A stretch of DNA of 63,580 nt, filler included, from a bacterium (GCA_040757115.1; 15 parts of 15 records of this genome joined end to end with filler, not necessarily neighbours in it); one strand, 5' to 3'. Counted from the first letter of the whole stretch, positions 8,255 to 32,874 are shown. Notes: generated by a model not told the origin, from the sequence alone. Made by a program: numbers and translations.

Positions 8255-8611
8255 GTAACTATTCACCACGAAGGACACGAAGAAAATTATAAGACATATC
8301 TTTTCGACCTGTGAAATAGGTTTAAATAAAATGCAAGAAACAGCGAAATACTACAAACAGATTGCTCCTACGGAGCTTTATTCATATTAGCTCCAGAGGA
8401 GCGATATGTTTGTAGAAAAATTATTTCCCTCATAACAAATTAGCTCCATCGGAGCGAGCTGTTTATTCTTTTTCTCACCCTAATTGGGGGATATTTGTAG
8501 CCCTATTTCACAGGTTGAAAAAAATTTGTAGTTATTGTCAGACACTACCGAAAATTACAAGACATTAAATTCCATTTCGTGTCCTTCGTGTTCTTCGTGG
8601 TGAATAGTTAC
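8255..8611. mobile_element. Composite miniature element (GTAACTATTCAC ends) with a nested CGACCTGTGAAATAGG element and GCTCC..GGAGC palindromes
   Basis: 19-bp perfect terminal inverted repeat (TIR) GTAACTATTCACCACGAAG; inner inverted pair at 8305-8320 and 8502-8517. Confidence 0.75.
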
Positions 8612-8651
8612 GAAAAAGGAAAATAGAATAGCAGAACGATTATCAAAAAGG

Positions 8652-10554: not shown

Positions 10555-10888
10555 CTATTTTATTACTAATATCTTCTTAGTCCCAACTACACTTCCACCA
10601 ATATGTAATTGATAGAAATAGACGCCTGATGAGACTATATCACCATCATCGTTTCTACCATTCCATAGGGTAGTAATATTTGACCCGGCAAGTTTATCTT
10701 CCTCTAATGTCTTGACTAATTCTCCAGCAATGTTGTAAATCTTAATGACTATATGAGCATTCACGGTTAAATCATACGGAATCTTTGTTTCTTCCTGATT
10801 GGGATTGAATGGATTTGGGTAATTCTGGTAAAGTTTATTGGTAGTTGGTAGTGGAATAAGTGACTGTGCTAAAGTTTTAATGAACCAA
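10555..10888 (-). pseudogene. Headless T9SS-like/FlgD-Ig C-terminal domain
   Basis: Open frame ..LYQNYPNPFNP..KIYNIAGELVK..WNGRND..SGVYFY; in-frame TAA upstream with no start ahead of the domain. Confidence 0.7.
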
Positions 10889-10899
10889 AAAAAAATTTA

Positions 10900-10928
10900 T
10901 TGACAGAAGGGGTAAAATAATGTAAAAT
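10900..10928 (+). promoter_or_regulatory. Sigma70-type promoter
   Basis: TTGACA-17 bp-TAAAAT; repeated at about 22552-22580. Confidence 0.6.
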
Positions 10929-21193: not shown

Positions 21194-22114
21194 CTACCAA
21201 CTCACGGAGAGGGATATGCGGTTCATGTCTTCTGCACCATCCATTTCTCCACTTGATACATTGGCAAAATCAAGCTGATAGACTTTGTAGTTTATTCCAA
21301 ACCCATAAGTTAAACCATCTACCTTCCTGCCTTTGTCAAGATAGCCGAGCCTTATCGCCAGAATATTGTAGGTATACTCAATGCCTGCGTTTATAGCCAG
21401 CTTAGAATTATAAAAATGCTTGTTTAAGTCCAGTGATAGGAGAAGATTATTCATTGGTTGGTAGGCAAGCCCGGTTCGTAGATTTAGTGGTAATTCATCT
21501 CCTTTTATCTTACTACCGAGATTTTCTATGCACGCACCAAGGGTTAAATTTGGTATTTGAGTCTTGCACAAAACCCCAAAATCAATACCAAATCCCTTCC
21601 CTTTCATTTCCTTCAGGTTACGCTGGATGTATTTCAGGCTTCCACCTAAGGATACATTTTCATAATAGAGTTTGCTGTATGAGAGGATGAGGGCAAATTC
21701 AGATGGACTGATGTCTCCTGTGGGTGCATTAGCCTTGTTCCTGGTTTCTATCTTGCCTAAATCCTGATGTATTATGCTTATACCCATTACTCCATCTCCT
21801 TCCCATTCTTCAATCGGTTGGGCATAGCCTAAGAAGGTTCGCGAAGTATCCTCTCGCTTATCGCCATACATCGCCCAGACCTCTTTTTTAGTCAGATAGG
21901 CTAATCCAGCAGGGTTAAAGTAGATAGATTCTACACCATCTGCTACTCCACAAAATGCCTCTCCCATTGCAGATGCCCTTGCTCCTACGCCCAGCTTTAA
22001 GAAATCAGCGGCGGTATCCGCCCCTGCCTCGGCATTAGGGAGTAGAAAGTAGAGAGTAGAGAGTAAAGAAAGAAATAGAGTTATACTTACCTGTTGTACC
22101 TTTTTGTTTAACAT
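21194..22114 (-). CDS. PorV/PorQ-family outer-membrane beta-barrel
   Basis: Same motifs as 9558-10463; ends in W. Confidence 0.85.
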   Translation of the reverse strand: MLNKKVQQVSITLFLSLLSTLYFLLPNAEAGADTAADFLKLGVGARASAMGEAFCGVADGVESIYFNPAGLAYLTKKEVWAMYGDKREDTSRTFLGYAQPIEEWEGDGVMGISIIHQDLGKIETRNKANAPTGDISPSEFALILSYSKLYYENVSLGGSLKYIQRNLKEMKGKGFGIDFGVLCKTQIPNLTLGACIENLGSKIKGDELPLNLRTGLAYQPMNNLLLSLDLNKHFYNSKLAINAGIEYTYNILAIRLGYLDKGRKVDGLTYGFGINYKVYQLDFANVSSGEMDGAEDMNRISLSVSW

Positions 22115-30368: not shown

Positions 30369-31489
30369 TTGACAGAATTAACCAAATATGATAAATTAAA
30401 AGAGATTAAAATGAATCTAATTAGAACCAGAGAAGAAAATTATATAAATCTTAATCCTTTACAAACTGGCGGTAGAACGAATGCGGCGGTAAGAGTGACT
30501 GCATCGGCTTATGTTGATGGGTATTCAGTTTGTGATTATTGTAAAGGGGTACTTCATCTAATTGAATCCCCACCTATCTGTGATTTAACCCGAACATTAG
30601 CCGAATTTCTGGGAATGGATGAGGCGCGAACAACACTTGGTGCTCGTGAGGGGAAATTTGCGGTGATGCATACCTTACTTTCACCTGGAGATTCAATCGT
30701 CATTGATTCTAATAAACATTATACTACCTATGTGGCGGCTGAAAAATCCTGTGCAAAAATATATGAAGTGCCCAATACCGGCTACCCCAAATATGAAATA
30801 ATTCCAGAATCTTACAAAGAAACTTTTGAACTGGTGATAAAAGAAACTGGTCTTGTTCCAAAACTTGCCCTTCTGACGCATGTCGATGGCGAATACGGCA
30901 ATCTGGTAGATGCCTATGAGGTAGGTAAGATATGTCAAGAATATGGTGTGCCGTTTCTTCTTAATACCGCATATACCGCAGGTCGAATGGAGGTTAATGG
31001 AAAAGAATTATTGGCTGACTTTATTGTTGCTTCGGCTCATAAAGGATTTGGTGTTCCGGGAACGATTGGCGTTCTGGCAACAACTGAAAAATGGGCTGAC
31101 AAATTATTCAGGAAATCTACTCGCTATCCTAAAAAGGAAATTGAACTTTTGGGGTGCACCGCCCGTTCACAAGCTATTGCCTCTCTTATCACTGCATTTC
31201 CGTATGTCAAAGAAAGAGTGAAACACTGGGATGAGGAGGTAGAGAAAAGTCGCTGGCTTGTAACACAAATGGAAGCACTGGGAGAGATTGAACAACTGGG
31301 AATAAAACCAACAAGGCATGATTTGATTCGCCTCAAAACCCCTCTATTTGATAAAATTGCTCAAAAACATCGCAAAAAGGGTTATTTCCTCTATTCTAAA
31401 CTCGAAAAACGGGGAATAATTGGAATAAAACCAGGTCAAACTCAATGGTTTAAACTCTCTACCTATGGCTTGACATGGGAACAAGTCAA
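30369..31489 (+). CDS. pscS: O-phosphoseryl-tRNA:Cys-tRNA synthase (SepCysS), 3' truncated
   Basis: INLNPLQTGG, DGYSVCDYC, GAREGKFAVMH, HVDGEYGN, PLP-lysine SAHK, ELLGCTAR, GIKPGQT..FKLSTYGL. Confidence 0.92.
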
Positions 31490-31589
31490 NNNNNNNNNNN
31501 NNNNNNNNNNNNNNNNNNNNNNNNNNNNNNNNNTTAATTAATTAANNNNNNNNNNNNNNNNNNNNNNNNNNNNNNNNNNNNNNNNNNNN

Positions 31590-31660
31590 ATAGTTTTGAG
31601 AATTTCTCCTGATAAATCAAATGAATTTGGTTTTGGACCACGTGGATATCTTTTTTGCAT
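31590..31660 (-). CDS. Hypothetical protein N-terminus (partial)
   Basis: GGAGG RBS then MQKRYPRGPKPNSF.. running into the gap. Confidence 0.45.
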
Positions 31661-32069
31661 AATTCTTTCCTCCTTAAAATTTCTATGCCCACGTGGAATT
31701 ATCGTCATTTTATCAGCAAAACTTTAGAAAAAACTGTGAAAAAATTTACTTAACACAGTACTAGACTGGACACCAAATGAACAAAAGTTGCTATTGTTGG
31801 TTTAAAGCAAGATATTTCATGATGGGACTCCTTTTATTTTAGATTTTGTTATATCAGTATAACATACCTGTCAATCTATTAAAGGATGCCCGTCTTTACA
31901 TATTATCAATTTCCTAGCAGTTAAAAATGTTATTTCCTTAGTGGATGAGTGCGGAGTGTGGATTGGTATATTAATCATGCAGAATTATCCTATTTTCTGT
32001 ATATCATGTAAAAAGTAATGATAACCAGTTAGAATTATACAGAATTTATTTGTTTTTGTCAAATTTTTT

Positions 32070-32599
32070 CGACCTGGGAAAACAAAATTATACTCCACTG
32101 CTTGGTGTAAGAAAAGGAGATAGGGAGATTAAGGAGATAAGGGGATATTATTCTAATTCCACTCTTCTAAAATCTACCTTTTCTTTAGCAAAGTTTACAA
32201 GAATAGCCATCTTTACACCTGTAGCTTTTAAATATGAGCGAACCTGAGCATAATGAGCTTTGCTTAATTCCTCCACCGTTTTTAATTCTACTATTACCTT
32301 GCTTTCTACAAGAATATCCAATCTGTGTTTCCCAATTTCTTCTCCTTCGTAGTAGATTAGTATTTCTTTCTCTGTCTCAACTCTCAATCCCTGTTTTGTA
32401 AGTTCAATTACCATTGCCCTGCGGTAAATACTTTCCAGAAAACCTGGATCCAGTGTCTGGTGTACCTTAATAATACATTGAATTATTATCTCAGTAAGTA
32501 AATTTTCTTGATATTCTTTTGATATCTCCATATCTCCTTTATCCCCTTATCCCCCTTCTTATACTAACCACGATCAAAATATTCCTATTTCACAGGTCG
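32070..32599. mobile_element. Non-autonomous element carrying an intact GxxExxY gene
   Basis: Ends CGACCTGGGAAA / TTTCACAGGTCG; AATTTTTT on both flanks (32062-32069, 32600-32607); inverted GGAGATAAG arrays on both sides of the gene. Confidence 0.75.
32148..32531 (-). CDS. GxxExxY protein (PD-(D/E)XK-like)
   Basis: VH..L.PGFLESIY, RLDILVE.KVIVELK, AQVRSYLKAT..LVNF. Confidence 0.92.
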   Translation of the reverse strand: MEISKEYQENLLTEIIIQCIIKVHQTLDPGFLESIYRRAMVIELTKQGLRVETEKEILIYYEGEEIGKHRLDILVESKVIVELKTVEELSKAHYAQVRSYLKATGVKMAILVNFAKEKVDFRRVELE

Positions 32600-32608
32600 A
32601 ATTTTTTC

Positions 32609-32637
32609 TTGACCTTTTGAGGCTATTGTGTTAAAAT
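32609..32637 (+). promoter_or_regulatory. Sigma70-type promoter upstream of the 27/28-nt array
   Basis: TTGACC-17 bp-TAAAAT. Confidence 0.5.
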
Positions 32638-32670
32638 ACAGAAAACTATATAATAACTTGTTAGCCCGCT

Positions 32671-32874
32671 GCGAAGAAACAGACTCAGAACGTAAGTGGC
32701 GAAGAAGTAGCTTGGAACAGGAGCAATGAAGAAGTGGTTCGGAGAGGAAGTGGCGAAGAAGTAGAGTGGAGCAGAAGCATCGAAGAAATGGACTCGGAAC
32801 GGAAGTGGTGAAGAAGTATCCTGGAGCAGAAATAGCGAAGAAGTAGCTTGGAAGAGGAGCAGCGAAGAACCAGA
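32671..32874 (+). repeat. Degenerate tandem array, period 27-28 nt, at least 7.5 units (cut by contig end)
   Basis: Invariant GAAGAA in units starting at 32671, 32699, 32726, 32753, 32780, 32808, 32835 and 32862. Confidence 0.9.

Follow-up and report, generated by a model that had tools for sequence, protein, structure and literature searches.

The window, by which we mean the whole stretch of DNA that was analysed (63,580 nucleotides, from the bacterial genome GCA_040757115.1, here G000), is a chain of short contigs whose joints take the form N44-linker-N44. One of these contigs, C386, occupies window positions 31590-32874 (1,285 bp; N from 32875) and carries a promoter and an array of short repeats that is cut by the contig end. 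The promoter lies on the plus strand at 32609..32637 and consists of TTGACC, a 17-nt spacer and TAAAAT, with TG before the -10 hexamer and 10 of 12 consensus positions kept. It is followed on the same strand by an attI core running up to the crossover point (32638..32660, ..ATAACTTG / TTAG..) and by the first 214 nt of a 341-nt gene-less cassette (32661..32874), which opens with the 10-nt head TTAGCCCGCT and continues, at 32671..32874, with units 1-7 and the first 14 nt of unit 8 of the array. Upstream of the promoter are the left half of an integron platform (31962..32070), comprising the start of intI and the region upstream of Pc, and a 538-bp insertion that splits the platform (32071..32608). 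The DNA runs that hold contig C386 are labelled as groundwater metagenome.

The units were delimited by anchoring on GAAGAA and with Tandem Repeats Finder. Anchored unit starts fall at 32671, 32699, 32726, 32753, 32780, 32808 and 32835, with the 14-nt stub at 32862, at spacings of 28, 27, 27, 27, 28, 27 and 27 nt. Tandem Repeats Finder recovered periods of 27 (6.3 copies, 64% matches, score 130), 55 (3.1 copies, score 195) and 109 (1.8 copies, score 254). A first-pass annotation of this DNA had described at least 7.5 units of mixed 27 and 28 nt, starting about 33 nt after a promoter and running into the contig end, and all of this is confirmed. Unit alignment drew on 39 units from five copies of the array, 31 of them distinct, and used the 29 of 27 or 28 nt. 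In a 28-column frame, columns 4, 6, 7, 8, 19 and 25 are invariant over these 29 distinct units, and columns 3, 5, 17 and 18 are conserved in 26-28 of them. The fixed blocks are GAAGAA and YGGA; GAAGAA, the GGA and a single A close to the end of the unit are invariant or nearly so, and this column conservation agrees with the formula proposed at first reading, nnGAAGAA-[7-8]-(G/A)GA-[4]-RARYR. That the 28-nt units might be sequencing errors was considered at that stage; they are genuine, because the identical unit-length pattern, 28-27-27-27-28-27-27-28-27-27, recurs in an independent genome of a second species in the same genus (G001). A search pattern of three units matched 12 times in G000 and 9 times in the same-genus relative, and lies beyond chance since the reversed control pattern matched 0 times across 61 genomes. 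The cassettes are 67-71% purine on the plus strand (A 0.37-0.38, G 0.29-0.34, C 0.13-0.15).

Scanning for consensus promoters does not by itself single out the promoter, as it found 3 sites against 1.8 ± 1.5 in shuffles; the call is based on homology to integron Pc regions, in particular to the Pc beside intI on another contig of the same genome, C322. Window positions 32594-32660 align with the Pc and attI of the C322 platform, and TTGAC is kept in five of the six platform-like copies in the genome. The same homology upholds the earlier description of the array as promoter-led. The attI core was delimited from this alignment and from a shared 12-nt end, which precedes different first cassettes on contigs C46, C148, C322 and C423. 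The array cassette starts exactly at the attI crossover, G32660|T32661 (G|TTAG).

Further upstream, 31962..32070 aligns at the DNA level with C322 over a stretch that begins at the intI start codon and reaches the T-rich run immediately ahead of the -35 box of Pc. Of intI itself only the first six codons remain (31961..31978, minus strand): tblastn with the C322 IntI matched residues 1-6 only, with 100% identity over 6 aa and an E value of 1.8, which is not significant alone, within DNA that is homologous. The TIGR02249 profile had no match on contig C386. As the platform in the window keeps only six intI codons, any movement of cassettes there would need an integrase encoded elsewhere. By homology, the promoter in front of the array is the Pc of a decayed integron platform, and the array is its first cassette. 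The first-pass annotation had read the array without any integron context, and that reading is superseded by the assignment of promoter, attI and cassette to an integron platform.

The 538-bp element between the intI start and Pc holds a complete GxxExxY gene on the minus strand (32148-32531; TIGR04256, 136.6 bits, cut-off 35). It has inverted ends, GACCTG[G/T]GAAA, and is flanked by a short direct target duplication of 9-13 nt, GTC[A/G]AATTTTTTC, at 32058-32070 and 32596-32608. Contigs of two public DNA runs join position 32061/32063 to 32600/32602 and omit the 538 nt, so that the element looks recently mobile, the two runs holding the empty site. The contigs of these runs are short pieces, none of which spans the stretch, and they do not extend the array.

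An intact integron integrase gene is located on C322 (G000:C322:13616-14995, minus strand, 460 residues), and the contig matches TIGR02249 with 368.6 and 372.5 bits (cut-off 265). About 140 residues N-terminal of the matched part form an extension. Further integrase fragments occur on several other contigs of G000. Adjoining the C322 integrase gene are a promoter, TTGACT-17-TAAAAT, and a site with the end ..ATAACTTG|TTAG. After attI there are eight sites on the plus strand ending TCGTTA[G/T], and an inverse core (N)TAAC precedes each of them by 38-123 nt. A four-unit version of the repeat cassette lies among them at C322:18982-19158, about 4 kb from the integrase gene. This stretch of C322 is an integron cassette array with the repeat cassette as a member.

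Searching the own assembly located the array on three further contigs of G000: C228, C31 (a complete copy of 5 units) and C322 (a complete copy of 4 units). C228 and C386 share 127 nt at their ends with 100% identity, C228 adding three units and a tail, and the complete cassette of C386 plus C228 measures 341 nt, equal in length and unit pattern to the copy on G001:C492. In G001 the array is found on at least four contigs. The long copy on G001 C171 measures 340 nt, with a 3-nt deletion and a 2-nt insertion, and the 10-unit layout with its common unit-length pattern is kept in three copies across the two species. The short forms are unit-level deletions, which removed units 1, 6, 7 and 10 in one and units 1-4 and 10 in the other. 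Two degraded copies were also seen in G001: a decayed second array copy with a truncated attC directly behind the first on C171 (locus L012, reverse strand, ~580-740), and a 3.5-unit remnant fused as leader of a two-gene cassette (locus L109, reverse strand, ~1497-1640), which may encode an antitoxin and a PIN-type toxin.

All copies in G000 begin with the same 10-nt head and end with the same 45-50-nt tail. In this tail an imperfect palindrome is bracketed by an inverse core (..GCTAAC) and a core GTTAG, the anatomy of an integron attC, and the last unit runs into this attC. The cores read ..GCTAAC and GTTAG[G/A/C]C, the inverse core fitting RYYYAAC in only five of seven positions. On the bottom strand the attC is predicted to fold into an imperfect hairpin with unpaired stretches on both arms, at -6.4 kcal/mol against -2.93 ± 1.4 for shuffles (z -2.48; 6/200 as good). 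Six further cassettes in G000 carry the same attC. The 5' junction is G|TTAGCCCGC in all seven places inspected (G000 C386, C31 and C322; G001 C171 twice, C492 and C467). Three of these junctions stand behind attI-like sequence (G000 C386, G000 C31 and G001 C171, the last being attI-like by resemblance only), and four behind the attC of different, unrelated cassettes (G000 C322, the second copy on G001 C171, C492 and C467). In five copies the attC is complete and is followed by TTAGGC, TTAGAC or TTAGCC and by different next cassettes. The first-pass annotation had assumed that any partner gene was missing beyond the contig end; this is not borne out, as complete copies close with their attC after 4, 5 or 10 units and are followed by different genes. 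The homologous arrays and neighbouring genes that it proposed looking for are present in the own genome and in the sister species, the neighbours again differing between copies.

On this evidence we regard the array as the whole cargo of a small gene-less (ORF-less) integron cassette, with a probability of roughly 0.8 that covers the identity of the cassette and its mode of movement, not the role of the repeats. Judged from its junctions, the cassette would be a discrete mobile unit. An integron integrase would excise it by recombining folded bottom-strand attC sites, and re-insertion at attI would place it right behind Pc. There it would be transcribed into a structure-poor, purine-rich RNA, which may stop at, or read through, the attC hairpin and its T-run. 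The cassette encodes no protein and requires no partner gene.

In the genomes and collections scanned, the cassette was found only within the genus. Relatives of the array were found in 0 of 59 other related genomes, the three-unit pattern having matched in 3 of 61: the own genome, the same-genus relative and a third, where the match is a chance string within a 729-nt open frame. A read-through peptide search of the phylum gave hits in 2 of 25 genomes, both of the same genus, and in none of the 23 others. In a genome contig collection 0 of 49 pattern loci were related, and in a metagenome contig collection 0 of 37, the own or near genomes being possibly outside both scans; the pattern matches in these collections were 27-nt-period coding repeats, 7-nt simple repeats and plant-like sequence. 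Pairwise identity among the three long copies is 91.5-93.6%, no different within a species than between the two, and a 4.5-kb chromosomal stretch is 79% identical between G000 and G001. Cassettes are evidently shared or exchanged between the two species. The identity of the repeat cassette alone is no sign of selection, because another gene-less cassette is 99.1% identical between them.

This second gene-less cassette, of 318 nt, was observed at G000:C322:18664-18981 and in 20 other places (21 copies), often at contig ends. It contains a hairpin, CACAAAG...CTTTGTG, and its attC is long; on C322 it lies beside the repeat cassette, and on G001:C171 in front of it. A further gene-less cassette carries a near-consensus promoter, TTGCAT-17-TATAAT, and occurs on G000:C31 (reverse, ~10,800-10,900) and on C200 (~21,650-21,760), where it ends in the short attC. 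On C31 the right-hand ~50 nt of attI stand behind it instead and lead into the repeat cassette, an arrangement that resembles an unusual junction with an attI remnant. Tandem Repeats Finder, applied to the whole of G000, found no other cassettes with a repeat body. Other elements noted in G000 were a CRISPR-like array (G000:C356:4992-6741; period 74-76 nt, 37-nt repeat), a ~355-bp non-coding element at window ~8258-8612 and a 390-codon ORF at window 30369-31541 that runs into a contig end. The ~355-bp element has inverted ends (..CACCACGAAGGACACGAAG.. / ..CTTCGTGTCCTTCGTG..) and dozens of matches in the sister genome and looks like a miniature transposon; the ORF may encode a pyridoxal-phosphate enzyme of the Sep-tRNA:Cys-tRNA synthase type.

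Two roles of the repeats appear about equally likely, that of a selfish passenger and that of a non-coding RNA driven by the promoter, and other readings share the remainder. The RNA of the array has a minimum free energy of -33.7 against -40.2 ± 3.5 kcal/mol for shuffles (z +1.86), 197 of the 200 shuffles being as stable or more so, and the bottom-strand DNA reaches -3.8 against -10.8 ± 2.7 kcal/mol (z +2.56; 200/200 shuffles at least as well). Relative to composition-matched shuffles, both strands of the array are depleted of secondary structure. A self-propagating passenger, selfish or neutral, falls somewhat short of even odds. On that account the strand-asymmetric, structure-free body would leave the attC free to fold, with no competition, and the frequent first position would merely record recent integration at attI. 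The 10-unit, 341-nt layout and its unit-length pattern, kept in three copies across two species, are harder to explain for a mere passenger. A needed function is in turn opposed by the persistence of forms with 3.5, 4 and 5 units and of one decayed copy, and a cross-species identity of 92-94% is no sign of selection. When matching units are compared, changes fall in 4 of 100 fixed-block columns and in 26 of 173 of the others (P 0.0045), a test that is partly circular because its blocks were derived from the data tested; a version that takes the blocks from one copy and counts changes between the other two gives 2 of 64 against 16 of 155 (P 0.10). These counts give a hint of constraint on the fixed blocks.

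That the Pc transcript acts as an RNA, be it as a decoy in trans or as a leader or insulator in cis, is taken jointly a tentative reading, only slightly less probable than the passenger. The less doubtful of its two forms, though still an unlikely one, keeps the cassette as described and makes the transcript a trans-acting decoy, whose ten single-stranded GAAGAA...YGGA sites would titrate a putative RNA-binding protein or the 30S subunit. The cassette stands directly behind a strong promoter in three of seven contexts, its RNA is depleted of structure, its motif is conserved and repeated ten times, and the fixed blocks change less than the remainder, all of which is consistent with a decoy. 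The number of units is not kept, ranging from 3.5 to 10, and this speaks against it, as does the lack of a CsrA or Hfq match in the genome. For Hfq, which would be needed if the array were an A-R-N repeat RNA bound by it, the profile PF17209 had 0 matches, the control having matched in five genomes, and a very divergent Hfq could escape such a search. Pairing with the ribosome was considered as well. The 16S 3' end of the genome is canonical, and about one third of the 10-nt windows can pair with it at -4.5 kcal/mol or better; this amounts to 94 windows against 96.3 ± 11.1 in composition-matched shuffles, so that an anti-Shine-Dalgarno sponge was rejected. Complementary targets longer than 19 nt were found nowhere else in the genome, the shared attC apart, which also weighs against a decoy. 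In its most specific version, an integron-borne sponge RNA of ~370 nt, unstructured and with ten GAAGAA...YGGA sites, that is made each time an integrase places the cassette behind Pc and titrates a putative single-strand RNA-binding regulator, we consider the idea improbable to a further degree, though not negligible.

Slightly less probable again is an action in cis, where the cassette is the same and the array, as a structure-free, C-poor leader or, together with a terminator-like attC, as an insulator, would tune the expression of the cassettes behind it or of intI. The attC has a terminator-like hairpin and a T-run on both strands, which would suit this role, as would the first position behind Pc in three of seven contexts; as six further cassettes bear this attC, the terminator-like feature is not special to the one with the repeats. 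Two neighbourhoods are suggestive: the 5-unit copy precedes a lone AccI-type restriction endonuclease cassette, and the truncated 3.5-unit copy is fused as leader of a two-gene cassette. The endonuclease gene directly behind the 5-unit copy (G000:C31, L003:480-1394, minus strand) matches PF09545 with 302.5 bits, and no methylase gene lies within the 1.9 kb inspected. Consensus scans, which other promoter types could escape, found no promoter-like site on either strand of the array or its attC, and ribosome-binding sites of their own can be read in the sequences of the downstream cassettes; both observations count against control in cis. Cis effects of gene-less cassettes are documented elsewhere, according to excerpts of PMC6557892.

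Gene-less cassettes as such are familiar. In an oral metagenome 13 of 63 cassettes were of this kind (PMC6557892, excerpts), and some of them carry promoters or an sRNA according to excerpts of the same paper and section 2.4.3 of PMC8876359. The ORF-less cassettes of oral Treponema, as described in the excerpted text of both papers, are likewise short, with a normal attC and no gene, lie in an integron array, are sometimes first behind Pc and occur in several copies. Those tested are described in these excerpts as acting through a functional internal promoter, whereas consensus scans gave no sign of one inside the repeat cassette; its body, moreover, is a pure array of ten 27/28-nt purine-rich units, unlike the known ORF-less cassettes covered there. 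The trans-acting sRNA-Xcc1, encoded by a Xanthomonas integron cassette (via excerpts of PMC6557892 and PMC8876359), offers a parallel in that a non-coding RNA is the cargo of a cassette. It differs in that the repeat cassette has no Rfam match and its RNA is predicted to be unstructured and repetitive; Rfam searches at E up to 10 and up to 1 returned only chance-level matches to eukaryotic families, with 16-24 bits against gathering thresholds of 50-100. A full-text search, in which few subscription journals were covered, returned no paper on an ORF-less integron cassette with tandem repeats.

A protein product is highly improbable. The array would then encode either a small, highly charged protein on the plus strand or a Ser/Leu/Phe-rich one on the minus strand, with the 28-nt units switching the frame. 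G001:C492 does have an 83-codon plus-strand ORF, which spans units 2-10 and has its stop in the inverse core of the attC, and an ORF ends at this same stop in four of five copies; it is broken by stops in the G000 long copy, however, and starts elsewhere in G001:C171. Stops occur in all three plus-strand frames in every copy, and no ORF is common to the five copies. In the long copies 93-101 codons of the minus strand can be read without a stop, simply as a consequence of its pyrimidine-rich composition. The lengths lost in the deletion forms (55, 109 or 137 nt) are not divisible by three. Synonymous changes are not enriched in any of the six frames (permutation P 0.08-0.80; 25 differences between two long copies). 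The longest ORFs matched no Pfam or NCBIfam family, and neither the 100-aa minus-strand nor the 83-aa plus-strand ORF had a match at E <= 0.001 in a set of 5.8 billion proteins (lengths 55-175 and 45-146 aa, respectively). These results bear out the original view of the array as non-coding.

ToxI-type antitoxin loci have a promoter, tandem direct repeats of a few tens of nucleotides and a hairpin. The repeat cassette resembles them in its layout of promoter, direct repeats and terminator-like hairpin, and toxin-antitoxin cassettes are common in the arrays, so that an antitoxin RNA of a type III toxin-antitoxin system had to be weighed; we consider it very improbable. The unit is shorter, the cassette is bounded by integron recombination sites, and a cassette boundary separates the array from the next gene. 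Type III systems have a conserved endoribonuclease toxin gene directly behind the array; here no fixed toxin gene lies downstream: the gene behind differs in every copy, being a 214-aa unknown protein with no family above cut-off, the AccI-type endonuclease, a gene-less cassette or other ORFs. No ToxN match was found in the genome, a weak blank given that the control matched nowhere.

Equally remote, taken jointly, are the three roles first suggested for the array, a CsrA/RsmA sponge, a processed mini-guide array of CRISPR or TIGR type and an iteron-like DNA array, in favour of which one could cite the regular period, the promoter ahead of the array and the single GGA that is invariant in each unit. 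CsrB/RsmZ-type sponge RNAs gather many GGA motifs in one RNA. Here the genome, 99.87% complete by marker genes, has 0 matches to CsrA (PF02599; the control matched in three known genomes), and the GGA motifs are not displayed in hairpin loops, because the RNA folds worse than 197 of 200 shuffles. CRISPR arrays consist of near-identical repeats, some 23-55 nt long, between which stand unique spacers of about equal size, and TIGR arrays have a 36-nt period and an adjacent Tas (Nop-domain) gene. The first-pass annotation had already set the array apart from both CRISPR and TIGR, rightly so: fixed blocks of only 6 and 3 nt and units 64-77% alike throughout are not those of a CRISPR, and a period of 27/28 nt with a GxxExxY protein, the 214-aa protein and the AccI-type endonuclease as neighbours is not that of a TIGR array. 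A mini-guide array is further opposed by variable blocks of only 4-8 nt and by the lack of an accompanying effector gene. Iterons are direct repeats in a replication origin, next to an initiator gene, and such an array does not fit a position inside an integron cassette, a 27.3-bp spacing out of phase with the DNA helix and the lack of a replication gene on the four contigs inspected (integron platform and cassettes); Rfam was blank for this group as well.

What seemed an orphan promoter-led repeat array can thus be resolved as ordinary mobile-element anatomy, in the order Pc, attI and first cassette. It provides a clear case of a gene-less integron cassette with a tandem array as its only cargo, present in two species of an uncultivated groundwater lineage. 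Gene-less cassettes are an already known kind; a body of short purine-rich repeats only is unusual. If the repeats do not act as RNA, the cassette would be a compact model of a selfish, minimal cassette. If they do, integrons would shuffle doses of regulatory RNA as well as genes. Should the sponge RNA in particular be real, the place of the cassette and its number of units (3.5 to 10) would set the dose, and it would act in a lineage in which neither CsrA nor Hfq was matched.
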